A DNA stretch of 64,000 nucleotides, from contig OZ024740.1 in NCBI GenBank assembly GCA_964016885.1, positions 368,590,001-368,654,000 on the forward strand, written 5' to 3'. Below, in pieces: positions 8,331 to 63,949 of the stretch (the first letter of the stretch is position 1; every line of letters begins with the position of its first letter). A program made the translations under genes and the position numbers. The DNA comes from Eledone cirrhosa (Eukaryota). A model generated the notes under the pieces. It did no database searches, had not been told where the DNA came from, and saw only the letters and a list, made by a program, of their open reading frames with translations.

Positions 8331-8560
8331 GTGAGTTTAAAAGCTATTGAAACGACTGGGTAATTGCTAGCCTTTTGCCAACAGTACAAACAATTATTAT
8401 ATAGTAATAAACATGTGTATCTATATCAAATATATATATATATATATATAGTAATAATAATAAAATTGAAGACTAAAATCCAAAGAGGGCTCGATAAGGA
8501 AAATATATATCACATATATAAGAACCGTAGAGCAAATATTTATTAAAATAACAGATTAAA

Positions 8561-8609
8561 GTTTAAGCAAAGAATCGCTGCTTTCACCCTTAACGGGATC
8601 TTCTGAAAC
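8561..8609 (-). ncRNA. Hammerhead-like motif with variant CAGAAGA core (family D)
   Basis: gttt CAGAAGA tcccgttaagggt GAAA gcagcgattctttgc TT aaac. Confidence 0.65.
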
Positions 8610-8700
8610 TAACAAAGTAAATCTGTAAACGCAGAACTGGATATTTCAAAAAACGTTGCAACCGGAGGAAGACAGGAAGACGATACTTTGGTTCGTGGTA

Positions 8701-8960
8701 ACGTTCGCTGGCAAAGAACGGGAAAAAACGAATAATACGTCATTAATAGGAGCGGTGAAAAACAATTACGCGCAAAGACAAAACCACGTTTATGGTATAA
8801 AAGAGGTCGTAGACTAATGTTCTCTAAGGTGGTGCATAGAGACGTTCTCTGGCAATGAACGAAAAAACGAAGATAATAAGTCATATGTGGAGCGTGAGAA
8901 CAATAGCACGCGAAGACAAAACCACGTAAATGGTATAGCAGAAATCGTAGACTAAAATTC
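8701..8960. repeat. Diverged 141-bp tandem duplication within the family D pLTR
   Basis: ACGTTC.CTGGCAA.GAACG...AAGACAAAACCACGT...CGTAGACTAA at 8701 and 8842. Confidence 0.8.
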
Positions 8961-9424
8961 TAACTAGGAGACCAAATGAATCTCCGCTATAGAGTTAAGA
9001 ACAAAGTAAATAAATACAATACAGAAGTAATAGAAACAAATAAATATATACACGCAAACAGATACGTACATACACAAGCATACGCAAAACCTTACCATGG
9101 TTATACAAAACCACGCACATATAAGTATGTGTGTGTGTGTATGCTTGTGTACAAATAAATAAATAATTATATAAACGTATATAAGTAAATAAATACGTAT
9201 ATAACAAGCGCACCCGCATACCTACATATAAATACACGAATGTTCGGAGACGTAAGTCAACTAAAACAAGAAGTACACATATACACACACCCACCATACG
9301 TACGAACCTGCACACTCACGCGGACGCAAAACTCTCGTATACACATAGCCAAACCCTAAATACCAGAATATGTAAAAATGATACGCTATAACAGTCAAAT
9401 ATACGTACGAGAAGGTATACATAC
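8708..9424 (-). other. Putative spliceosomal intron (717 nt) in the family D pLTR
   Basis: Donor GAAG|GTATGT, acceptor TTTTTTCCCGTTCTTTGCCAG|; precisely absent at 14709/14710 and 12414/12415. Confidence 0.75.
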
Positions 9425-10216
9425 CTTCACAGAACATACGGGTAATATATACTTACCTATGCAAATAAGTAAAGAAATAAACAAACATATACTTAGCTCC
9501 CACATCAAGACGTAAAATATCCACGTATAGATCGTGCTATCCGTTAGGGTTTAACGTGGGGCTGTAATACAGGAAAGTTTTGTGCAATTTATGTTTACAA
9601 GCCGAAATTGCCTCAGAAAATGCTTCGTAATAAGGGAAAGAAAGATCTTAGCTAATGGTGTGGCCACCTCCATATTATATGGTGGGTTAAACCAACAAAT
9701 GCGACGGGATCTATTTCTTCTAGGTCTATTTTCGTACTTTGTATTATTTCTATTTTCGTACTCTGTATTATTTCTTTTGTACATGTATTTATTTACAAAT
9801 CCGGAACCGTAAGTTGAGCTTTTGCCACGATAGAACCCCACCTAACCACATACACACCACTGAAGAAGAAATGACATCCGGGACATTATTCTAAATATAA
9901 AGTAACGTTCTTTTGAAATCAATAGAATTATCTACTACATTATTTGTATCCTGACCTGTTGAACAATACTTCAACCCTTACCACCCAAAATTCCTAAAGA
10001 AAATATATAATAAGAGAGTTTGATAGAAAATGTTCATACGTTATAACTGCCTTCAGAATATAAGTAGAAACCTTTTATTGTTTGATCAGATTGGCAGTAA
10101 TATTTCATGAGATATAAATTAATGTAATGGACCAATTATACAAAATCAAATCAAACTGGCTGATTAAAAAACAGGATCTCTAAATATACTTCAATGCTTT
10201 TTTACCTCTCTCACTC

Positions 10217-12245: not shown

Positions 12246-12255
12246 TTATTTATTC

Positions 12256-14943
12256 AAATAACAGATTAAAGTTTAAGCAAAGAATCGCTGCTTTCACCCT
12301 TAACGGGATCTTTTGAAACTAACAAATCAATCTGTGAATGCAGAAGTGAATATTTAAAAAAACGTGCACCGGAGGAAGACAGGAAGACGATACTTTGGTT
12401 CGTGGAAACGTTCCCTTCACAAAACATACAGGTAATATATACATATGGATTTTAGTCTTCAAATTTATTACTTTTACTATTTGGCTCCCTCGGTTGAGCA
12501 CTCTATTGACTTATATTCATTATGCAGAAACACCATCTGAATATTTCTACAAAGAACATACCCGTTCCAAGAAGGAAAACATACCTAAAACTCCTGATAC
12601 AGAAAACAGACGCGTCAATTAAAAGGTTGCGTTGGCGTGCCTTTTATTTCGATAATCATGGGAAAGCAGACAACAAACAGGGTACATTTGGGTTTAAAAC
12701 CTATAATATCCCTCCGGGTAACCCAGCATTGCTACCCTTTGAAAATGATGTCTTGGAACTCATACGGAGTATCTCATTTCGGAATAGGAGCAATTCCTTC
12801 CAGCTGGACCTGAAGAATAGAATTCGTTCTATTAAGGATTCTAATGCCATGCACGTCCATTCCGACACAACTGGCAACCTATATCAAGTGGAGCGCAGTA
12901 CTTACCATCAACTACTACATAATGCTGTAACTAAGGAGTACCGTAAAACTAATCGATGCGTCATTAATGAAATAAACGATGCTGGGTTTAAAATCACCTC
13001 TGATCTCAACATCCTGGACCGTACCGAAACTCTGGACCCTATTTCTCCCCACTTTACCCTGAAGGATCACAAATCCAATTTTCCTAACAACTCCTCTATT
13101 CGGCTTATTAACCCCACGAAGTCCGATTTAGGTAGACTTAGTAAAAGGATTATTGATAGAATTATACCTGAAATTAGAAGTTTCGCCCCTCTTGCACTGT
13201 GAAACAATTCTTTCGCGGTGATTGATTGGTTCAACGGCATATGCAACAAGGAATATTCGACATCAATAATTACTACTCCTCCATCACTTTACCACTTCTC
13301 CTTAGAGCTATCAATTTCGCTAAAACACTCACAGTGGTTAAGGATTTCGAAATTGATGTCATCCGCAATGCCCGTAAGTCGGTGATTAATTTCGACGACT
13401 CTATTTGGATAAAAACATCTAATAGTACCCCATTCGACGTGAGTATGGGCACCAGCGATTCTGCGGAGGTTACTGATCTTATCGGCCTTTTCCTTCTTTT
13501 CTCTATCAAGGACGAATTCCTCAACGTGGGCGGTGGTTTGTACCGTGATGATGGTCTTTTGACCATGACTAAGTGCGGCCCACGTGCTTGCGACATGTTC
13601 AGAAAGTAACTCACAGCCTTCTTTAAAGGCTTCAACCTCTCTATACAGGTTGAGACCAACCTCTCGGTCGTTAATTACATCGACGTTACCCTCAATTTAT
13701 CGAATGGCTTGTATTACCCATATAGAAAGCCGAATGATACGCTTAATTACATAAGTAAGTATTCTAACCATCCTGCCAGCATACCCATTAACCTGGTAAG
13801 AAACGTTTCTTTGAGGCTTTACCGTCTATCTACTAACGAGCATATTTTCAACGAAGATATTACAATGAAACTCTTGCTCGGAGTTGATTTATCGATAAGG
13901 TAGCATATACAGAGTACGACAATAGATCTAGTAGAAATAGATCCCGACGCATTATATGGTATAACCTACCATGTAATACGGAGATGGCCACACCATTAGC
14001 TAAGGTCTTTCTCTCCCTTATTACGAAGCATTTTCCCCCTACACATAAATATAGTAACATTTTTAATAGAAATACTACTAAAATTTCTTACTCTACGACA
14101 CCTAACCTTGCACATAACATCACAGCTTCAAATTTAGCTAAACTACCTAGCCGTAGGAACACGTTCAACCCTGTAGTTAGTACTAACTGTAATTGTAGGA
14201 GTCGGATTGACTGCCCCCTATCCGGGAAATGCCTCTCTAGTAACATTGTCTACAAATGTAAGGTTGAAACACCCTCGTCCCGTAGGGCCTACATGGGTTT
14301 AGCCGCCAATAGATTTAAGCAGCGTCTTTACATGCATACCCATTCTTTTCTTTACCCTCTAAGAAGGAATATGACGTCACTTTCAGCTTATATCTGGAGT
14401 CTAAAAGACAAACACACACAATATAAATTACACTGAGAGATCCTAGCTAGGGCTAGATCGGATAACGGAAATAAAAGACCATGTGAACTCTGCGCCGCTG
14501 CGGCCCTGGAAATACTCTACGCCACAGATCACATCTTAAACAAAAAATCTGAGGCAAGTTCGGCTTGTAAACATAAATTGCACAAAACTTTCCTGTAAGG
14601 ATCTATACGCGGATATTTTACGTCTTGATGTGGTAGCTAAGTATATGTTATGTTTATACCATTACTTATTTGTATAGGTATGTATATATTACCTGTATGT
14701 TTTGTGAAGGGAACGTTTCCACGAACCAAAGTATCGTCTTCCTGTCTTCCTCCGCTGCAACGTTTTTTGAAATATTCACTTCTGCGTTCACAGAAGATCC
14801 CGTTAAGAGTGAAAGCAGCGATTCTTTGCTTAAACTTTAATCTGTTATTTTAATAAATATTTGGTCTACGGTTGTTATATAATTGATATATATTTATCCT
14901 TATCGAGCACTCTTTGGATTCTAGTCTTCAAATTTATTACTAT

Positions 14944-14946
<3 letters not shown>
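12256..14946 (+). mobile_element. Full-length decayed Naiad-type PLE (family D) with inverted pLTR at 12256-12445
   Basis: Inverted pLTR, then a 35-nt direct pLTR end (12446-12480 matches 14914-14948), ORF and 3' pLTR; (TA)n on both sides. Confidence 0.92.
12522..14598 (+). pseudogene. Naiad RT + GIY-YIG polyprotein with several stops and frameshifts
   Basis: STKNIP, RWRAF, LKDHK, RLINPTKSDLG, FDINNYYSSI, MGTSDSAEVTDLIG, GLYRDDG, CNCR..CPLSGKC, IVYKC..AYMG, CELC. Confidence 0.93.
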
Positions 14947-14987
<41 letters not shown>

Positions 14988-14990
<3 letters not shown>

Positions 14991-16892
14991 AAAGTTTTAT
15001 TTAAAATTGTTGGGTTACAACAAGTAAATATTTTATAACTGATATAAAGCGCTCAACAAGTTTTGGAGTAGATATACGATATTAAACAAATGGAAACTAT
15101 ATTTATAAAACCATATTTATTTCATTATACATATTTCGGGGATACCATATTAAAAATATGGCATGCCTTCTTCAGATAAAATACAATATATAAGCAGTTT
15201 TATAAATAATTTTGACCTACCATAAATATTGATCAACTTTCATGTAAGTAGTTGGTTTGGTAGTGAGATGTTTATAAATATTTAGTGTTAAGCATAGTTA
15301 AAAAGAAAGACGGAGAAAAAGAAGAAATGTATGTAAAGAAAAGCAGAGAGAAATAGAGAGAGAGAGGGGAGAGAGAAATAGTGAGGTGGTGAAAAAAGAG
15401 AGTCAGCTGAGGCAACAGATGAATAATAATAATTCATCATACAGATTGAGCGATTTAGTAGGGAGGGAGTACTGTAATTATTTAGTTATAGTGTTAATGT
15501 CTCAGATGAGGAATTAAAAGCAATCCCTCTTGAGACAATATTCCAAAACATCGAATATCAACGTCATCATGTTTAAGTTGCCAGAGTAAGCCTGATAGTG
15601 AAGTTGAAGATTTTTTGATTGGATCTGTGAAAGAATTCTTATGATTATTATAGCGAAGTTTAAATTCTGTCGAGGTGGAACCAACATAGTTAAAAGAATT
15701 TAAGTTAGTTTTAACATTACAATTGTATATTATATTTTTAACTAAGCAATTGTTATTTAACGGACATTTAGATATATTTCTACAGTTACAGTTGTTTAAT
15801 TGAATATTGTTTAGGCTATTATCGGTATTTTGGCTAGGTTTTAGATTTCTATTATTTACTCAGTTAATATTCTGTGCTAAATTTTTGGTGGACGAGTAAG
15901 TTGATTTTATAGTATGTCTATTAACAATTGAGTGATATTTATGTGTTCTAGGGAAGCGTTTGTCAAGAGCATTAAAAATTAGTTTAGCAATGTGGGTTTT
16001 AATATTTAGTGAGAAAGGGGGGGGGGGCAAACCATATTATATTTCTAGTTCTATTTCTTTTCTGGCTTTTGGAATTATTGTAATATTTTCTATTATAGTT
16101 GTTAAAGTTGTTACCGTAATTAAAATTGTTATTAATTTGGTTAGTTTGCCTATTATTATCGATGTACTTAATTTTATCACTATATCCTGCTCTAGCTAAC
16201 GCTTCATTGTAATACCGCGCTTTTTCGTCGAAAATATTTTTATTAGATGATATTCTTGAGATACGTTCTTGAACAGAGTTCACTATAGTATTTTTAACAG
16301 ATCTGGGGTGATTAGAGTTAAAATTGACATAATTCAAGTTTTCATTTAGTTTGTGAAATGGATAGTGAAGACATGTGTTGAGATTTAGTGTTACATCTAG
16401 GAAATTCACTATTCTATGGTCATCCTGTATTTCTGTTTTTAGATTAAGGTAATTAAAAAATTGTATAATTTGTTTTTTTTTTCTATTTAGTTCAGAGTTA
16501 TTATTTTCAATAAGTAAAAGCATGTCATCACGATATAATCCTCCGGTTACACCAGGTATTTTTCTATGCAGCGAATTAATTATAAATAGGCCCACAAGGT
16601 CCGTTACCTGAGCTGAGTCAGATGATCCCATAGTAATGTCGAAATTATTATCTCTATCTGCCCTAGTCCATAGTTGGTTATTAAATTCTATCAATGTTTT
16701 CCTTGCCGATAATATAATGTGCATTTCATTACTAGTTAGGTCTGTATGTTTGAATGCGTAATTTAGTGCCTTATTCAGTAGATTAGGAGTAATAGATGAA
16801 TAGTAGTTAGCAATATCTAGTTGAATAAATTTATTATTATTGTTATATTTAATTTCTTTAAACCACTCAATAACCTCACCAGTTCCCTTCCA
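14988..16892 (-). mobile_element. Inverted, 5'-truncated, internally deleted copy of Naiad family E
   Basis: Reverse complement of 18049-19441 joined at about 15497 to sequence from 20851 onward; RT fragment ORF 15999-16898. Confidence 0.92.
15118..15183 (-). ncRNA. Type I hammerhead ribozyme (family E)
   Basis: Reverse complement of 17104-17169. Confidence 0.75.
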
Positions 16893-17103
16893 GTTCACCT
16901 CCTCACTATTTCTCTCTCCCCTATCTCTCTCTATTTCTCTCTGTTTTTCTTTACATACATTTCTTCTTTTCCTCCGTCTTTCTTTTTAACTGTGCTTAAC
17001 ACTAAATATTTATAAACATCTCACTACCAAACCAACTTCTTACATGAAAGTTGATCAATATTTATGGTACGTCAAAATTATTTATAAAACTGCTTATATA
17101 TTG

Positions 17104-17169
17104 TATTTTATCTGAAGAAGGCATGCCATATTTTTAATATGGTATCCCCGAAATATGTATAATGAAATA
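17104..17169 (+). ncRNA. Type I hammerhead ribozyme (family E, 5' pLTR)
   Basis: tattttat CTGAAGA aggcatgccatatttttaatatggtatcccc GAAA tatgta TA atgaaata. Confidence 0.75.
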
Positions 17170-17349
17170 AATATGGTTTTATAAATATAGTTTCCATTTG
17201 TTTAATATCGTATATCTACTCCAAAACTTGTTGAGTGCTTTATATCAGTTATAAAATATTTACTTGTTGTAACCCAATAATTTTAAATAAAACTTTTGCA
17301 TATATTTTTGCTCCAATACTGTTGAGCGCTTTATATTATAACTGAAAAA

Positions 17350-19552
17350 ATGGAATTCTTTAAGATATCTTCTTCTCTAAAAGACATACCTCTACCTAAG
17401 AACAAAGACTTTATTAAACAATTAATAGAAAAATCAGACTCTTTTATAAGAAGAATCAGGTGGCGTGCCTTCCACTTTGATAAATCTAATCTAAATGAAA
17501 ATGTTTCAGACTTAGATAAAGTTTTCAAATCTAAAAAAAAATCCCCCCCCCCCAACAAACTTTTAATGGATTTTGAAAACGATATAATTTCTATCATACA
17601 AGGAGTCAAATTGAAGAGAAACTTCAAAGGCCAGGACTATCTAAGAAGCATTAAGGATAATATTGAAAGCTTGGAGAGAACAGAGAAGATCTTGGTGAAA
17701 TCGGACAAAACCAACAACCTTTATGGAGTGCAAATAGACATGTATAATGGCCTTATACTGAAAGAACTAAGGAAAAAGTACAAGGTAGCAGATAAGGATG
17801 AACTGGAAAAAATGAATGTTGAGGCATCTTGTATAATGCATGAGTTGAACATTGAGAACAAAACACAACCCTTCTTGCCTAGGAAACCCAAGATCAATAT
17901 GAAAGATCACAAAAGAAATTTTGAAAATGATTTGCCAGTCAGATTGATTGCACCATCAAAATCTGACCTGGGTAAACATAGCAAAAACATTCTAGACAGG
18001 GTGATACAGCAAATTAAAAACTTACATAATTTACCTAACTTAAACTTATGGAAGGGAACTGGTGAGGTTATTGAGTGGTTTAAAGAAATTAAATATAACA
18101 ATAATAATAAATTTATTCAACTAGATATTGCTAACTACTATTCATCTATTACCCCTAATCTACTGAATAAGGCACTAAATTACGCATTCAAACATACAGA
18201 CCTAACTAGCAATGAAATGCACATTATATTATCGGCAAGGAAAACATTGATAGAATTTAATAACCAACTATGGACTAGGGCAGATAGAGATAATAATTTC
18301 GACATTACTATGGGATCATCTGACTCAGCTCAGGTAACGGACCTTGTGGGCCTATTTATAATTAATTCGCTGCATAGAAAAATACCTGGTGTAACCGGAG
18401 GATTATATCGTGATGACATGCTTTTACTTATTGAAAATAATAACTCTGAACTAAATAGAAAAAGAAAACAAATTATACAATTTTTTAATTACCTTAATCT
18501 AAAAATAGAAATAGAGAATAACCATAGGATAGTGAATTTCCTAGATGTAACACTAAATCTCAACACAAGTCTTCACTATCCATTTCACAAACTAAATGAA
18601 AACTTGAATTATGTCAATTTTAACTCTAATCACCCCAGATCTGTTAAAAATACTATAGTGAACTCTATTCAAGAACGTATCTCAAGAATTTCATCTAATA
18701 AAAATATTTTCGACGAAAAAGCGCAGTATTACAATGAAGCGTCAGCTAGAGCAGGATATAGTGATAAAATTAAGTACATCGATAATAATAGGCAAACTAA
18801 CCAAAATAATAACAATTTTAATTACGGTAACAACTTTAACAACTATAATAGAAAACATTACAATAATTTCAAAAGCCAGAAAAGAAATAGAACTAGAAAT
18901 ATAATATGGTTTGCCCCCCCTTTCTCACTAAATATTAAAACCCACATTGCGAAACTATTTTTTAATGCTCTTGACAAACGCCTCCCTAGAACACATAAAT
19001 ATCACTCAATTTTTAATAGACATACTATGAAATTAACTTACTCGTCCACCAAAAATTTAGCACAAAATATTAACAGAATAAATAATAGAAATCTAAAACC
19101 TAGCCAAAATACCGATAATAGCCTAAGCAATGTTCAATTAAACAACTGTAACTGTAGAAATAAATCTAAATGTCCGTTAAATAACAATTGCTTAGTTAAA
19201 AATATAATATACAATTGTAATGTTAAAACTAACTTAAATTCTTTTAACTATATTGGTTCCACCTCGACAGAATTTAAACTTCGCTATAATAATCATAAGA
19301 ATTCTTTCACAGATCCAAACAAAAAATCTTCAACTTCACTATGAGGCTTACTCTGGCAACTTAAACATGATAACGTTGGATATTCGATGTTTTGGAATAT
19401 TGTCTCAAGAGGGATTCCTTTTAATTCCTCATCTGAGACATGTGACCTCTGTAAAATCTAAAAATTCCCTTAATTTAAGGAGCAATTTATTCAGTTGCTG
19501 CAGACATAGATTGAACTCAACGTTTAAATATAAATATACATTTAAAATGTAG
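17350..19552 (+). pseudogene. Naiad RT + GIY-YIG ORF, open for 664 aa, then premature stops and a frameshift in the endonuclease tail
   Basis: SLKDIP, RWRAF, KSDKTNN, MKDHK, LDIANYYSSI, MGSSDSAQVTDLVG, GLYRDD, NFLDV, WFAPPF, CNCR..CPLNNNC, IIYNC..YIGST; continues past TGA 19342 as GLLWQLK..CDLC..LNLRS..CRH. Confidence 0.95.
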
Positions 19553-21165
19553 TATAATTAGTTAAGATATTTAATTAATGTATGAAACCTGACGATAAAT
19601 CTTTCGATTCCTTCAACTTTTTCTTTTAAACCTTCTACATAAATATATAATAATGATGTAATTAAACTACCCTAAAATGTAGATGCTCCCAATATATTGA
19701 ATACATTTTACGCTAGATATACTTCTATACTAAATATAAGAGCATCTGTAGAGCAACAGGGTCTCCTAAATCTTTTAAATGATTTCTGCTAAATAAGTTT
19801 TGTTGAATAATTTTTGGTTTTTTGTTTGCTTTTTGATTCTGATTGCTTCTAATGAACTTGACAATATATTGTCAGATGAATTGGAAGGGTAGATTTCTGT
19901 GGTTGATAAGGGGGACATACTGTGTTTTTTATGGCCCGAGATACTCTAGGGAGTGATGAAAATATTTTTAACGTTTTGATATCTCTGTGCTGATATATTA
20001 ATATCTGGTTGTCTCTGTACAAAGGCCATATGTATTAATATGAATATGGAATGATTACAGAGTATATTTTATTTTATCTGTTTATTTTATCTGTCCATGT
20101 ACATATATGTGCGCACGCATATATATATATATGTATGTGTGGCTATGGTTCTGGATATGTTACAGATATGCATAATATTCTATACATGAACGATAATCAT
20201 GTATGTGAGGGCAGAAATATTAATATATATTTTTATGTATATATATATATAATAAAATCTTTTATAACACAAGAGAACATGTTTTTGTGTGAAACAAGAA
20301 ATTACAGAGTTGATCACGTAAGATCACGGGTATGTCTATAGTATCAACTAGAACTTGAGATGACCTTCTCTTTCTCTTTCTTTCCTTCTCCGGAAAGTAC
20401 ATATATACTTATGTATTTCCGTATTTTTTGAAGTTTTATCTCAGTTTTTGGTACATCGACCTAAGAATTTTAAACTAAACATATGGTCATTATTTTTCAC
20501 ACATTATATATCTATGTCTCATTCATGAATATTGATATTTACATTATAATACCCAATTCATATGAATTGATAATTCAAATTCATAGGACATAACGTAAAC
20601 ATGTAAATCTATCATCCTTCTCTCTAGATATAGCTCTTTCTTCTCCTTCCTCTTTATACATGATGAAATTTAAGTATCGGTTATTTTAACTTTGCCTCTC
20701 GAGCTTCTCTCTTGTTTTCTCTCTTACTTCTCTCCTATTTCTCTCACCTCCCCATATATAATTATTATTTGGTCTACCTCTTTTTTCCCCCCACCTCTAT
20801 CTTTCTCTATCTCTCTGTTTTCTCTTTATTTTTTATTTCTCTCCGTCTCCTTAACACTATAACTAAATAATTACAGTACTCCCTCCCTTCTAAATCTCTC
20901 AATTTGTATGATGAATTATTATTATTCATATGTTGCCTCAGCTGTCCTCTCTTTTTTCACCTCCTCACTATTTTTCTCTCCCCTATCTCTCTCTATTTCT
21001 CTCTGTTTTTCTTTACATACATTTCTTCTTTTTCTCCGTCTTTCTTTTTAACTGTGCTTAACACTACATATTTATAAACATCTCACTACTAAACCAACTT
21101 CTTACATGAAAGTTGATCAATATTTATGGTACGTCAAAATTATTTATAAAACTGCTTATATATTG

Positions 21166-21231
21166 TATTTTATCTGAAGAAGGCATGCCATATTTTTAAT
21201 ATGGTATCCCCGAAATATGTATAATGAAATA
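21166..21231 (+). ncRNA. Type I hammerhead ribozyme (family E, 3' pLTR)
   Basis: Identical to 17104-17169. Confidence 0.75.
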
Positions 21232-21272
21232 AATATGGTTTTATAAATATAGTTTCCATTTGTTTAATATCG

Positions 21273-21305
<33 letters not shown>

Positions 21306-29900: not shown

Positions 29901-30750
29901 TACAAACTGCATTGTTTCTTTCTAGATGCTATGTTGAAATCTAAATCTCGTTCCATGAGAATATTTTGGTCAGCCTATGTATTTTTCAGTCTAGGAACTT
30001 TTTACCTGACCCTCGAACTTTGTGTGCATTGTTTATTTTATATGCGGTTGTGCGTGTTATATATATTGAACATGTGTTTATCTATTTTGTATAAATACAG
30101 AGGAAAAGTATGCGAGCGAAAATGCAGTGTTGTTATACGTGGCGTTCCTTATTTTGGTTTTATACTTTGCTATCTGCACATATTTAATGATTTGTTTTGC
30201 CTTTTTATGTATGGGAACATATTGTTGGGTCTGTGTACGTTGCTTTAGACAGAACCCTCCGTTCCGGTTTATCTCCATATGTTGTAAGCCGAAGGTATTG
30301 TCCTGGTATAAATCTAACAGCGTCCTTTGATGGATGTCGATCCCCGAACCAACTTTCTACTCCGGATTATCACGTCTTCGTTTATATGCATAATTCTACA
30401 ATGAAAATTTAGCACAAAAAAAAAACAAAAAAAAAACAACATAACTATTCTTTAAAGATGTTAGCACGAAATATCAAAAAAACATTTTGAATAATCTATA
30501 GCAGATCGAATTATAAAGTAAAGCTTTGCTTTCGCAATAATTTACAAACAAGGTTTGTCTTCTATCAATTAGGTGAAAGCGGAATCTTGAATCGAAAAAA
30601 AAGATATATATTGTAAAGTTAGTATTTCAGCACTTTCATTTTCCAGCCAATAATATAAGCTAATAAAGCAAACCGTTTCTCACTATACAAGTGAAAGGCT
30701 GTTGACATTTTAAATTATAGCTTAGAATTTAGTATTTCTGTAAAAGCTAT

Positions 30751-30936
30751 ATAATTGTTTCTACTTTTGGCACAAGGCCAGAAATTACCCAGTACATTAC
30801 TGGTCCGTTATTCAATCGATCCCGTAAGGATGAAAGGCAAAGTTAACCTCGGTGGGATTTGAAATGGGAACGGCAAGGGCCGTAACTCTATGCTTCAAAA
30901 CATGGCGTCCGACCCTCTACCAATACTGCCAATCCA
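30751..30936 (-). mobile_element. tRNA-derived SINE (OK-like)
   Basis: Reverse-complement match to 51884-52066. Confidence 0.85.
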
Positions 30937-31435
30937 AAAACCTATATGATGCCTGCCATTTACATTAGCGAATTCAAAATTATATTGAAATAATAAATGT
31001 GAAATGAAAGAGAATGCTTAATTTGTATGCAGAACTTTGGTTTTGTCGTGGCTGTTAATGAAGTAAAGCTATGTATATAATCGGGGGATATCTACAAAGT
31101 GAATGGGGCGTAATACGAAATAATGTATAATCTGAATTGAAACCATTCTAAGAACTTCAACCGCGATATAGGAAGCAATAAGCAGATTCTTAACAATGAA
31201 ACTTTAATGATAATACGTATCATTGAGGACACTGTTTTTCTTCGTGTTTGATAAGTACGCTTTTTGAGATTATTTTCTTTAAATTTCCTAAAGAGAAAGC
31301 TGTTGATATTGATTTTCTATTCTTAGATACAAATCCTATATTGTTTCAAGGAATGTAGCAAGAACATAATCATTTCCCATATAAATGTCAAGAATACAAA
31401 TATAATGGGGTGTTCATTAGACACGGAGATATAAA

Positions 31436-31626
31436 TAATTGTTTCTACTTTTGGCACAAGGCCGGCAATTACCCAGTGCATTACTGGTACTTTATTTTAT
31501 CAACCCCGTAAGGATGAAAGGCAAAGTTAACCTCGGCAGGATTTGAACTCAGAATGGAAAGGGGCGTAACTCTATGCGTCAAAGCATGACGTCCGACACT
31601 CTACTGATACTGCCAATCCACCGCCC
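31436..31626 (-). mobile_element. tRNA-derived SINE (OK-like) with 18-bp target-site duplication
   Basis: Full length; CACGGAGATATAAATAAT at 31422-31439 and 31628-31645. Confidence 0.9.
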
Positions 31627-38654: not shown

Positions 38655-38796
38655 TTAGTTTAGCAAAACAAGACCACAAATTTCACAAGGAACACATTAA
38701 TTAAAGATTGTCAACATAGTTCTAGGTTAATGAAAGGAATGTAAAGAATAATAATAATACTAATAATGTCCGTTTACAATTGTTTCGCTACTCCAT

Positions 38797-38985
38797 ATAA
38801 TTGTTTCTACTTTTAGGCACAAGACCACCAATTACCCAGTGCATTACTGGTACTTTATTTTATCGACCCCGTAAGGATGAGGGACAAAGTCAACCTCGGC
38901 GGGATTTGAACTCAGATCGTAAAGGGACGTAACTATGCTGGAAAGCATGGCGTCCGACCCTATACCGATACTGCCAATCCACCGC
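38797..38985 (-). mobile_element. tRNA-derived SINE (OK-like) with about 13-bp TSD
   Basis: Full length; TA(C/T)TCCATATAAT on both sides. Confidence 0.88.
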
Positions 38986-47367: not shown

Positions 47368-47390
47368 TATTAATAATAATAATTATTATT

Positions 47391-47568
47391 ATTTCTACTT
47401 TTGACACAATGCCAGCAAATACCCAGTACATTACTGGTACTTTATTTTATCGACACCGTAAGGAAGAAAGGCAAAGTTAACCTCGACGGGATTTGAACTC
47501 AGACCATAAAGGGACGTAACTATGCTAGAAACAATGGCATCCAAACCTCTACCGATACAGCCAATCCA
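47391..47568 (-). mobile_element. tRNA-derived SINE (OK-like)
   Basis: Family match. Confidence 0.85.
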
Positions 47569-47594
47569 ATAATAATAATAATATATATATATTT

Positions 47595-47845: not shown

Positions 47846-47869
47846 ATTATTATTACTATTATTAATATT

Positions 47870-48057
47870 GTGGATTGGCAGTAGCGGTAGAGGGTCGGAC
47901 GCCATGCTTTAACGCATAGAGTTACGGCCCTTGCCATTGTGAGTTCAAATCCCGCCGGGGTTAACTTTGCCTTTTATCCTTACGGGGTCAATAAAATAAA
48001 GTACCAGTAATGCACTGGGGTAATTACTGGCCTTGTGCCAAAAAATGAAACAATTAT
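47870..48057 (+). mobile_element. tRNA-derived SINE (OK-like)
   Basis: TGGCAGTAGCGG A-box, GAGTTCAAATCC B-box, family core. Confidence 0.88.
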
Positions 48058-48069
48058 TATTATTATTGT

Positions 48070-49620
48070 TATTTTAATTTTCTTTCATTATTGTTTCTGA
48101 GATATATGCCGAGTGTCTTCCTGACACCTAGGGCAAATACATTCACAGTGTGCATTGGTAAGCCAGTTAATACAGCACATTGATTATAATTTTTAAAAAA
48201 CAAACAGTATACACAAGTGCATATGTATATGTAAATACAATGAAGGATATCAATCTTACAGAGATAGTGCTCTTCTCAATACGTGTGCAGTACCAGTCAA
48301 AATAGTTGTTGGCACCTCTTGCAGAGAGGGTAAACCAGGAATCATTCGCAAATATTGTTCTGTTCCTTTATTGATCATTCCCAGTCCTCCCACAATCACT
48401 GGTATTGTAACGGCCTTGAGTTGCCACATGTTCTCAATTTCAATAAGCAGAAATTTATATTTTCGTAGCTTGTCAAATTCCTTTGCCGCAATATTGTGAT
48501 CACATAGGATGCTCATATCTATCAAAAACAGATCTTCTTATGTTGATCTTTTACAATGATGTCGGGTCTATTTGCTTTTATGGTCCTGTCAGTATGTACA
48601 GGAAAGTCCCAGAGAATTGTTACTTTATCTCCTTCAGTTACAGCCTCAGGATGATGATTGCACCACTTGCCTTCAGCTTTGATTTTGTAATGCCGAAATA
48701 TTACCCAGTGTTGATATTGACCAACTCGGTCATGTCTATATTTGTATTTTACTGGTGCTAAAACTTTACATCCAGAGACTAAGTGATCCACTGTTTCATG
48801 CAGAATCGGCACTTTGGGTTTATTCCGTTTCTCATCACATAGACCTGGTAATTACGAATCAATAAGCTTTGATCTTGGACAGATAAGATGTTGCCTTCAC
48901 TCTCCACCTTTAGCCCTGAATTATGTAGCCACTGATGTGTGTGTTTTTGGTTAACATCAGCTTGTTTGCTACGGGCCCCATATTTTCCATGCAGAGGTTT
49001 CTGCTCCCAATTTGATGCTAATTGTCCTTGCCCTTTTGCTTTTGCCAGTGATTTTATGTGCCTAGCAGCATCAGTTTCTTTAGTCTGTCCAGCCTGGGTA
49101 TCAAGTATGAGATCAGTAGCATATTTTCTGCCCTTCTTCAAGTGAGAATGAATCTTCTTACTTCTCTCATGCTTTTCAACAACTTTCAGCATACACTCGT
49201 AAGTTGTTTCAAGGTATTTGGCCAGTCCAATGATGGTGGTCTTGTAAGCAAGTTCAAACTGGATTAGGCCACGGCCTCCTTGAGTTCTAGGAAGGTAAAG
49301 ACGATCCACATCTGCTTTTGGGTGGTGCATCCTATTACAGGTCAGTAGCTTACGGACTTTGGTGTCGATTATTTTCATTTCACTCATATTCCAGTTCAAC
49401 ACACCGAAGCTATAAGTGACAACTGGGACTGCCAAGGAATTTATGACTAGCACCTTGTTACGAGCGTTTAGTTCTGATCTCAGAACTGCACGTACTCTCC
49501 TGTAATATTATTTCCTTATCCTCTCTTTCACACTTGCATGCTCTATGCCAGAGACCCCATTAATCCCTAAGAATGTATAGGTTTGTTCCATCTCAAGTTC
49601 CTTTATGATTGTTTCAGCAT
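48070..49620 (-). mobile_element. 5'-truncated R4/Dong-clade non-LTR retrotransposon (decayed)
   Basis: INSLAVPVVTYSFG, LYLPRTQGGRGL, QDQSL, CRFC..ETVDHLVSGC, YRHD, NRPDII (restriction-like endonuclease), GTAHVLRRAL; (TAA)n on both sides. Confidence 0.9.
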
Positions 49621-51850: not shown

Positions 51851-51883
51851 TGGTAAATTGTTTACTTATTATTATTATTATTA

Positions 51884-52066
51884 ATGGATTGGCAGTATCG
51901 GTAGAGGGTCGGACAACATGCTTTCCAGCATAGTTACGCCCCTTTACGATCTGAGTTCAAATCCCGCCGAGGTTGCTTTGCCTTTCATCCTTACGGGGTC
52001 GATAAAATAAAGTACCAGTAATGCACTGGATAATTGCTGGCCTTGTGCCTAAAGTAGAAACAGTTA
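51884..52066 (+). mobile_element. tRNA-derived SINE (OK-like)
   Basis: TGGCAGTATCGG A-box, GAGTTCAAATCC B-box, (ATT)n tail. Confidence 0.88.
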
Positions 52067-53399
52067 TTATTATTTTAATTTTATTATTATTGTTGTTGTT
52101 GTTATCATTATTATTGTTGTAGTTGTCAACATTAACTGTTTTACCATACGTAGAGCTAATATAGATGTGAACGAGAAACATATAATACATTTACGTCCTT
52201 CAGACAGTTACTAAAAGTAGTTATTTTTCTGTCTGTTTAAATAAGCAGTTGAAATATTTCGGTGAACGTTAAGTAAATTTATATAACGCCTGAAATACAA
52301 TGCCACCTCTTAGTTGGCTTGGCTAAAATAGATTATGAAACGTAAATTAAGCATTCAAGTACAGTGCTCCTATATTGATTATATTTTATTATTTTTATAA
52401 CCTTTGGCTTTTTTGGCCATACGCCATTATAAAGGAATTCTATCTAAGTGTTTCTGTAATTGCAGTTTTCTACGTTTCTTTATTTTTATTTCCCCAAAGA
52501 TCTTCATCTCATTTATCCAATTTTGGCTGTGAATAGCGTAATTTCCAGGTATAAACGGTGAGCAAACGACCGACACTACATTATTAAAAAATATAATTAT
52601 TATACTTTATTTGATAGCACATAAACAAAGAAAACATATTTCTGAGAAAACACTCAAGCTGTAACACACATAAAATTCGGTGGCAAAGGAAGGAGAATGA
52701 TCAGCATTGCTTTTATATAAAGTTCCTTTTAAATTATCATTCCTCAAGGAACGAGTGATATACAAAAATTCACTTCTAGGCACAAGGAAGTTATCGTAGC
52801 ATAAATGTTGTTAACCTCATTTCATACAATCAATACTGTTATTTATTAGAGTAAAAAAAGCTTAACTAATCAATTAAAACCAGTTAAACTAAATATAGTG
52901 TATCTCCTTCACATATGAACTACAGCCTCATTCTGAACCAGAAGCCCAGTCCATCTTACCTATAACTAATATATATATATATATGAAAAGGGAGTAAAGT
53001 TATATACAAAGCAAGGGTTATAAAGAAAGAGTGGTATTAGAAATAGCACCTAATATATATTTAAGGATCTGTTTTTCTTGTTTTCGTCTTTGATTCGGAT
53101 TGAAAACAATGCGAGTAACAATTCTTTTAAAAACAGGAATTTTATAATGTTTATGAAATATATAATATAACCTTTTTCCATGTATCACTGTAAACCATAT
53201 TATCAAATGTTGAATATTACAATTAAAAAGAATTAAGAATTTGAAATTTAAAATTAAGTGCCAAAGAAGTCTGTTCATCTTTCTTGTTACGAGTACTGGG
53301 CCTTAAATTGAATAGAAACTCACACACACACACATACACAAACAAATATACAACGATTCGTGCGACGCACGAAACTACAGGAACATTTCCATCTAACAC

Positions 53400-58099: not shown

Positions 58100-59145
<1,046 letters not shown>

Positions 59146-59146
<1 letters not shown>

Positions 59147-59213
59147 TTAAAATAACAGATTCAAGTTTAAGAAAAGAATAGCTGCTTTCACCGTTAACGG
59201 GATCTTCTGAAAC
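59146..59213 (-). mobile_element. 68-bp family D pLTR fragment consisting mostly of the variant hammerhead
   Basis: Matches 8543-8609; core CAGAAGA retained; (TA)n on both sides. Confidence 0.75.
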
Positions 59214-62674: not shown

Positions 62675-63949
62675 TCTCTCTATATATAAAATGATTTGCC
62701 TATCTGTCTATCTGTCTACCTATCTGTTCCTATGCATTCTCAAACGCCTCGACTAAATCAAATAAAATGTTATAAGGTATTAGACACCGGGAGTGTCAAT
62801 ATGTAAATTTTATTTTCATTTGGATTAAAACAATATAGTATTTTATGTAAAATATTCTTTCTAAAGTTGTCAACTATAGTAAACCTCGACGACGTATGTG
62901 GTTGTGTATGTGTCTGTAAGCGTGTGTGTGTTTGCGAGTTCGTTTCGTACGTTAGACCTCAGAGAATTAAACACACACATACATATAGCCTTAGTAGGTT
63001 GCATACACATTATCTTCACACACAGATAATTAGACACACACACATAAACACATACATATGTGGTGACAGACAAATAACAGGTGTGCGTGAATGTATGTTT
63101 GTTTGTGTCTGTCTTAGTATCTGTATGTGTGAGTGTATGTGTGTGCGTATATGTGTGTGTGAGTGTATGTCTGTGCGAATGTATGTGTATCCCGCCGAGG
63201 TTAACTTTGCCTTTCCTCCTTACGGGGTCGAAAACATAAAGTACCAGTAATGCACTGGGTATTTGCTGGCTTTGTGCCAAAAGTAGAAACAATTATTTTA
63301 ACGTTAGGCCTCACAGAATTAAACACACACATCTACACATATATATACTTATATGGTGACAGAGAAGTAGTAGATGTACGTGAGTGTATGTGTGAGTGTA
63401 TGCGGGGGTGTATGTGAGTGTGAGTATGTGTGTGTGAGTGTGTGTCTGTTAATTTGTATTTTCATTTAGATTAAAACAATAGAGAACAACACAATGACGT
63501 CACATTTTGTATATGAATATATGTGTCTGTGAGTGTGTGTGTGCGAGTTTATTAGGTACCTTATTAAATACACACATACATACTTGAAACTGACACTAAA
63601 TGATGTGGAAATCTAATCGTGTGTCTGCGTTAATGTATGTCTGTTTGTGTATGTCTTAGTATATGTATGTGAGTGTATGTCAGAGTGTATGTGTATGAGT
63701 GTGTAGCAACAATTTATTCAATTTTACACCAACGAAAATTACACAATGAGTTTTGTTTACATTAAGGTGCTTCAAGATTGACAGATTTTCATTTCTATAT
63801 TCTATTATCGGTACAATTTTGATATTTCTTTTAATAAAATATAGTTATTTTGGAATAACTATGAGAAAAAGCAACAACATATCCTCATATTTATTGTTTA
63901 CTAATCTGAATAAGAAGCACAGTGACACGAGCAAAGCCGTGTAACTCAG
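62675..63949 (+). mobile_element. Possible non-autonomous Helitron with internal tandem repeats
   Basis: TCTATATATAAAA start followed by (TCTG/TCTA)n, internal duplications (62951/63303, 62811/63457), terminal hairpin ACACG-AGCAAAGC-CGTGT; no exact CTAG end. Confidence 0.4.
63189..63296 (+). mobile_element. 5'-truncated OK-like SINE
   Basis: 3' half of the family core. Confidence 0.82.

Follow-up and report, generated by a model that had tools for sequence, protein, structure and literature searches.

Intron-retaining and precisely intron-less junctions of a Hydra-type Penelope-like element in the genome of Eledone cirrhosa

How Penelope-like elements (PLEs) retain introns while passing through an RNA stage has been an open question since 2003, with antisense and unspliced-sense templates both proposed (PMC3846280, PMC2377424). 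One stretch of the Eledone cirrhosa genome (the window, 64,000 nt in all) bears on this question: one PLE copy in it carries, within its pLTR, a GT...AG segment of 717 nt whose flanks are joined elsewhere in the window. Is the segment an intron, were intron-less copies made once or many times, and from what template? We consider it very probable that the host of this segment is a Hydra-type PLE with a GT-AG intron in its pLTR, that about 5% of the junctions examined are exactly intron-less, having likely been made repeatedly as the element's own reverse transcriptase (RT) and endonuclease integrated spliced sense RNA, and that the intron was kept in the long-lived lineage.

On the minus strand of the window GTGAAG is followed by GTATGT, and the segment that begins there (9424-8708, 717 nt) has TTTGCCAG at its 3' end and is followed by CGAACG. 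The intron-less junction GTGAAGGGAACG occurs at 14704-14715 (+) and 12409-12420 (-), the flanks being joined without the segment between 14709 and 14710 and, inverted, inside 12409-12420; the initial annotation was correct on this segment, letter for letter and in its coordinates. It was also right that the window's two other pLTR copies lack the intron, but not in counting them as independent copies, as together they form a single older, decayed insertion, one being its body and the other its inverted arm, and so represent one event only. The body (12440..14990, +; ATG at 12522) is a full-length copy with an RT followed by a C-terminal GIY-YIG domain, spliced at 14709/14710 from the donor that we call D2, and its inverted 5' arm (12247..12445, -) has the same D2-spliced junction at 12409-12420. 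The intron-plus copy is young, belonging to the youngest step of the subfamily ladder described below, and upstream of the intron it comprises a 5'-truncated ORF end and 3' UTR (9457..9744, -; stop TAG at 9539-9537) with an internal deletion of ~510 nt at 9616/9617. Beyond the intron lies exon 2 of the pLTR (8536..8707, -), which ends at the commonest 3' end in our survey of copy ends, and then an optional tail (8451..8535, -), which equals the lead-in to the next unit and precedes (TA)n.

The GTATGT donor (D2; 717-nt intron, 8708..9424, -), at which 102 + 7 genomic copies are joined exactly, had been taken as the splice donor but is the minor one. A second donor 32 nt upstream, D1 (ATAG followed by GTAAGT at 9456), defines a 749-nt GT-AG intron (8708..9456, -) and is used more often, with 117 + 162 + 15 exact-join copies; stop codon and intron are 80 nt apart with D1 and 112 nt apart with D2. 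The 749-nt skip is also present in contigs of run X1, which may be the assembly's own sample. Read in order, the intron's 3' end presents the branch-point-like motif TAATGAC (8739..8745, -), the A of which lies 33 nt before the 3' splice site and may serve as branch point, a pyrimidine tract and CAG. The main acceptor is CTTTGCCAG (8708..8716, -), and a variant of 390 copies, CTTAGCCAG, has a second AG 4 nt upstream. At the DNA level the segment therefore combines the traits of a spliceosomal intron, namely a GT donor, a branch-like motif, a pyrimidine tract, AG and precise removal, and the host spliceosome is the presumed maker of the junctions. The intron also contains a tandem duplication of ~139 nt (8842-8961 versus 8701-8823, 79% identity), through which a second copy of its 3' end (8842..8961, -) presents an acceptor-like site ending at 8849; no D2-joined copy using this site was found, the sole match being a point change in a normal exon 2. 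In older subfamily steps the length of the unspliced intron ranges from about 590 to 1,150 nt.

The element had been labelled Naiad, a placement that its motifs contradict. Read by eye, these motifs assign it to the Hydra-type PLEs with a C-terminal GIY-YIG endonuclease. At locus L424 an intact single ORF of 708 amino acids has RT motifs and then a GIY-YIG-like domain, and GIY-YIG-like motifs likewise follow the RT in the window copy. The L424 protein carries DKT exactly, RWR where the Hydra clade has RWK, and CNCRNRADC (a CxCX5C linker), CDLC (CxxC) and CKH (CxH) around conserved E and N residues, with no CCHH motif. The N-terminal GIY-YIG and the DKA motif of Naiad are absent, the endonuclease motifs coming after the RT and DKT standing in place of DKA, and size is also discordant, since Naiad has a main body of 3.4-4.4 kb and no hammerhead whereas the unit here measures 3,258 nt with its intron and contains a hammerhead-like motif. 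A Pfam search returned no families. Of 8,000 candidates scored in a protein search 1,274 were relatives, and the top 120, at 39-57% identity, are essentially unnamed. The hammerhead-like motif, a candidate ribozyme (8560..8610, -), was matched by eye to the layout in File S2 of PMC8557442. Its core reads CAGAAGA, compared with CTGAAGA in Hydra-clade PLEs (A for U), and the motif is conserved across 254 copies; a minimum-energy fold recovered just part of the layout, and an Rfam search yielded no hammerhead, its hits being weak, microRNA-like and confined to the dinucleotide tract. In contigs of run X4, depth at 8538-8613 is ~300 times that of exon 1 (about 8 times in X1), an excess over the hammerhead-like stretch that could reflect a short non-autonomous derivative or mere 5' truncation.

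The resemblance to the Hydra-clade PLEs described by Craig et al. (2021, PMC8557442) extends from the C-terminal GIY-YIG, DKT, CxCX5C, CxxC and CxH motifs to (TA)n targets, a length of about 2.5 kb without the intron and, as judged by eye, the hammerhead layout near the 3' end; the differences are RWR for RWK, the CAGAAGA core and the 3.26-kb unit, which is due to the intron. Partial tandem and inverted pLTRs, the optional tail and 5' truncation are general PLE traits that the element shares. Where units are arranged in tandem, 301 nt separate the intron acceptor from the start codon (ATG) of the intact 708-amino-acid ORF that follows, and this interval holds no other ATG. The 749-nt intron contains 14 ATGs, so a transcript begun upstream would likely need splicing for translation.

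The initial annotation proposed a genome-wide count of intron-plus and precisely intron-minus copies. Exact patterns of 17-23 letters were counted over the 2,996-Mb genome, the reversed control giving zero matches for each. The unit of this census is a junction match and not an insertion, the arms of one insertion not being independent, and all counts are lower bounds. There were 8,112 intron-retaining and 427 precisely intron-less junctions, the latter being 5.0% of the 8,539, or ~10% when spliced junctions are set against the donor-bearing unspliced copies alone (3,887). Intron-less junctions take four forms, two donors combined with two acceptors, D1 with the main acceptor (the 749-nt intron) being the commonest. 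By subfamily step, the oldest (G) has 4,268 unspliced, 117 D1-spliced and 102 D2-spliced junctions, the middle 1,679, 162 and 7, and the youngest 1,775, 15 and 0; to these must be added 390 unspliced junctions of a TAG variant, the AG of which precedes the acceptor by 4 nt, and 24 spliced junctions in which D1 is joined to the -4 acceptor. The spliced share thus runs from 4.9% through 9.1% to 0.8%, oldest to youngest, and the ratio of D1 to D2 shifts from 117:102 to 177:7. An insertion private to this locus, which would have explained the segment without splicing, is irreconcilable with 8,112 exact intron-end junctions across the genome, and the 717-nt segment is present, at 98-100% identity, at all 40 genomic places scored. 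The census also disposes of the supposed substitution at the first exon base. That letter distinguishes subfamilies, since in the older intron-plus subfamily CCAG is followed by GGAACG (4,268 matches), with which the intron-less copies agree without any change.

The joins are precise at a few fixed sites, and the heterogeneous breakpoints that the initial annotation would have taken as a refutation did not materialize near them. When a gap of 0-30 nt was left free in the pattern, the first 100 of 300 matches, sorted by eye, comprised 93 joins of D1 to the main acceptor, 7 of D1 to the -4 acceptor and none elsewhere. A single D2 join was shorter than precise, its junction intact, and six were longer. 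Three of these join D2 to the -4 acceptor, in near-identical copies that all lie in one 70-kb stretch, and the other three are small insertions, in one case at the junction. The -4 form provides a natural mutation test of acceptor choice. A marker ~45 nt before D1 is present in 9 of the 12 TAG-variant unspliced copies with data, against 2 of 38 other C-type unspliced copies; the same marker is carried by 8 of 13 C-type -4 copies (from seven insertions) and by none of 50 C-type copies with the ordinary D1 junction (p=3e-7). Since the marker tracks the -4 junction, an AG newly gained by a source was used as the joining site in its progeny, as a spliceosome would do. For the marker-bearing copies at least, the TAG variant accounts for the -4 junction, which need not imply a non-canonical GT-TG intron. 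The marker is lacking in nine -4 copies with data (five C-type, four G-type), whose acceptor may be TG or may derive from a TAG source outside the sample.

Two readings of the intron-less copies had been offered, that both spliced and unspliced RNA are mobilized or that one spliced sublineage arose and persisted. The former agrees with the four precise forms and their presence at every step. The latter fails as the sole explanation: two different donors cannot stem from one loss, and spliced copies at every step of the subfamily ladder do not make up one spliced sublineage. In a broader version of the second reading, a few intron-less sources, one per splice form, multiplied as sublineages and, through recombination with the main lineage, took up markers that arose later. 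This finds some support in the data. Sixteen D1 copies group together at a support of 85, although few unspliced copies of that step are in the sample; one private change is common to five D1 copies from five loci; the proportion of spliced junctions is highest, at 9.1%, in a single step; and L421:3030-5538 and L423:2593-7593 are fully spliced tandem insertions, with two and three D1 pLTRs, respectively, which are candidate intron-less sources. Indeed, the group of 16 and the shared private change may reflect a spliced source that was active for a time. As a general account, however, it is improbable, because on either side of the junction spliced copies of every step, the youngest included, have the haplotypes of unspliced copies, and because the TAG-linked marker tracks the -4 junction. 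When 146 copies were sorted on 27 linked markers, D1 copies shared haplotypes with unspliced copies from the oldest through the youngest step, and D2 copies did so across the older steps. The question of a single or repeated loss, which the initial annotation had referred to a tree, was put to one as well: an exon-only tree of 147 distinct copies among the 276 (those with >=600 nt upstream) is ladder-like and has 17 changes between spliced and unspliced, with weak support (3 of 143 branches starred). In AU tests on 54 copies drawn at random from 121, a D1 clade was rejected (p=0.0025), while a D2 clade gave p=0.09 and an unspliced clade p=0.043; the D2 value fell to 7e-5 after the addition of three C-type D2 copies, which had been picked for their haplotype and one of which is long-branched.

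Integration of spliced RNA, the explanation that we favour, can be distinguished from loss of the intron after insertion by comparing the arms of single insertions. Of sixty spliced seeds, drawn by their order in the list and examined together with wide flanks, 15 had a contiguous head-to-head partner, and all 15 pairs had the same splice form, one -4 pair among them; seven head-to-head or same-strand neighbours of these seeds that were separated by a gap were unspliced. Across the full set of loci, those contiguous pairs in which an arm is spliced comprised 53 of the same form (18 of which were chosen as pairs and 15 came from the list-order seeds), none of different form and one that was mixed (L057). 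Contiguous tandems were spliced in both units in two cases (chosen), unspliced in both in six (one of them probably two insertions) and mixed in none. Both ends of an insertion were thus likely built from one molecule. Tandem continuation seemed rarer in spliced (2 of 220) than in unspliced copies (10 of 210), a difference given no weight because the two spliced and five of the unspliced cases had been chosen on purpose. Gene conversion by cDNA of spliced RNA, a published model of RT-mediated intron loss (PMC3652778), might be invoked for the mixed pair, but at a rate of 5-10% the arms would convert separately and the pairs would be mostly mixed, and this model is accordingly very unlikely. 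Among contiguous unspliced pairs, 6 of 31 differ at a subfamily marker, for which later mutation is the only explanation we can offer.

The AG followed by G that donor and acceptor have in common in the G-type background makes it conceivable that the intron-less copies are DNA deletions, or template jumps of the RT at this short repeat, that involved no splicing. However, the same ends are found in the C-type background, where just AG is common to both sites, two GT donors are used with almost no other breakpoints nearby, and a gained AG moves the junction, so such an origin seems exceedingly improbable. Retroposition of spliced transcripts in trans by a LINE, in the manner of processed pseudogenes, has equally little to commend it beyond the presence, at the loci retrieved, of other RT elements, seen as long RT-like ORFs and assigned to a class by eye, as poly(A) follows 0 of 172 spliced copies and their 3' ends, (TA)n targets and inverted arms match those of unspliced copies.

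Spliced copies carry the integration hallmarks of the parent element itself, as SpIRE-like copies do. Poly(A) was absent from the 104 unspliced copies as well, and (TA)n follows 162 of 172 spliced and 92 of 104 unspliced copies (254 of 276 overall). The two classes share two 3'-end modes, at the exon-2 core or after the tail, and the usual inverted arms are found on spliced copies too. At L302, L321, L324, L432, L172 and L023, copies of different steps lie tail to tail, often 400-600 nt apart, as would be expected if new copies insert into (TA)n beside old ones.

Intron-bearing PLEs and spliced, retrotransposed L1 copies are already known. Penelope of Drosophila virilis (Schostak et al. 2008, PMC2377424) and Chlamys-3_cRei (PMC8557442) likewise have a pLTR intron that lies upstream of the ORF in tandems; for both, spliced and unspliced RNA exist, and Chlamys-3 has alternative introns (PMC2377424, PMC8557442). 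Their introns (75 nt in Penelope, 398/751 nt in Chlamys-3) were demonstrated with RNA, whereas the 717/749-nt introns described here are deduced from DNA. The majority of PLEs contain introns according to PMC2377424, the parts of which considered here give no census of spliced genomic copies. Craig et al. predict introns upstream of the ORF in other PLEs, and the Hydra section and metadata sheet of that paper (PMC8557442) mention neither an intron nor spliced copies; the present element places such an intron in a Hydra-type PLE. Our literature search found no census of spliced genomic PLE copies, and Arkhipova 2003, Gladyshev and Arkhipova 2007 and Evgen'ev and Arkhipova 2005 may mention intron-less copies. 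A close parallel is provided by the L1 SpIREs (Larson et al. 2018, PMC5860796), in which spliced element RNA was integrated, in several forms, by the element's own machinery. They number 131 of 6,609 full-length L1s, about 2%, show subfamily-specific splicing and are interpreted as dead ends (PMC5860796). L1 differs in being a LINE, its 5' UTR is spliced cryptically and its copies end in poly(A), and the word Penelope is absent from the main text of PMC5860796. This work extends the SpIRE idea from L1 to PLEs, where the conserved intron sits in a repeat copied at both ends and so also reports how the ends are made.

These data bear on a puzzle set out by Arkhipova et al. (2013, PMC3846280), who, confronted with the same combination of intron retention and head-to-head inverted pLTRs, favour an antisense template and leave an unspliced sense template open. 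An antisense-only template is contradicted by the spliced copies, since spliced insertions with normal PLE ends need a spliced template derived from the sense strand, at least for themselves; by parsimony, the sense strand is probably the template of unspliced copies too. The template would then be sense RNA that is mostly caught before splicing, and hence probably in the nucleus. A sense transcript through the 3' pLTR would be reverse-transcribed from an internal site, as an Anolis PLE is in vitro (PMC11167929); reverse transcription would usually precede removal of the intron and follow splicing in about one case in twenty, and body and inverted arm would have one RNA or cDNA as their common template. 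Lasting sources would keep the intron, which is indeed retained along the whole subfamily ladder. In D. virilis, removal of the Penelope intron abolished protein but not RNA, which was proposed as the reason for its retention (Schostak et al., PMC2377424), and by analogy the intron-less copies described here may be mostly dead ends, perhaps through low protein output.

Hundreds of integrated splice products imply that spliced sense RNA does work as a template and that intron retention is leaky, at about 95%. The splice form, moreover, is a natural barcode for the template molecule of each end, making the origin of pLTRs directly testable. Much more tentatively, PLE pLTRs, inverted and tandem alike, could be re-copies of one sense RNA, possibly a ribozyme-cut circular monomer copied by rolling circle, with the RT racing the nuclear spliceosome and the lineage having evolved a way for its template to evade splicing (the spliced share of the youngest step is 0.8%). 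Although we think this proposal rather less probable than its negation, it would, if true, make the genome a dated record of single point changes that shifted donor and acceptor choice in the germline.

The surroundings of these copies contain further repeats. At L345:2265-118 (-) an intact ORF of 715 amino acids from another PLE family (RT, C-terminal Cys linker and GIY-YIG-like domain, read by eye) adjoins a spliced copy, and intact long RT-like ORFs of other retroelements lie in the flanks at L332:460-3321, L363:203-2632, L323:4409-6667, L353:4176-2128 and L332:8764-6893. In the window, another inverted fragment of the same pLTR 3' end (75-90% identity) occupies 59012-59213, and a young inverted repeat structure of ~97% identity with a 672-codon open frame (17326-19344) is inserted at 14982-21280, immediately past the spliced copy's (TA)n. 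A dispersed repeat of ~190 nt is present in eight window copies, at 363-548, 30748-30940, 31429-31620, 38795-38985, 47368-47583, 47857-48095, 51861-52094 and 63189-63298.
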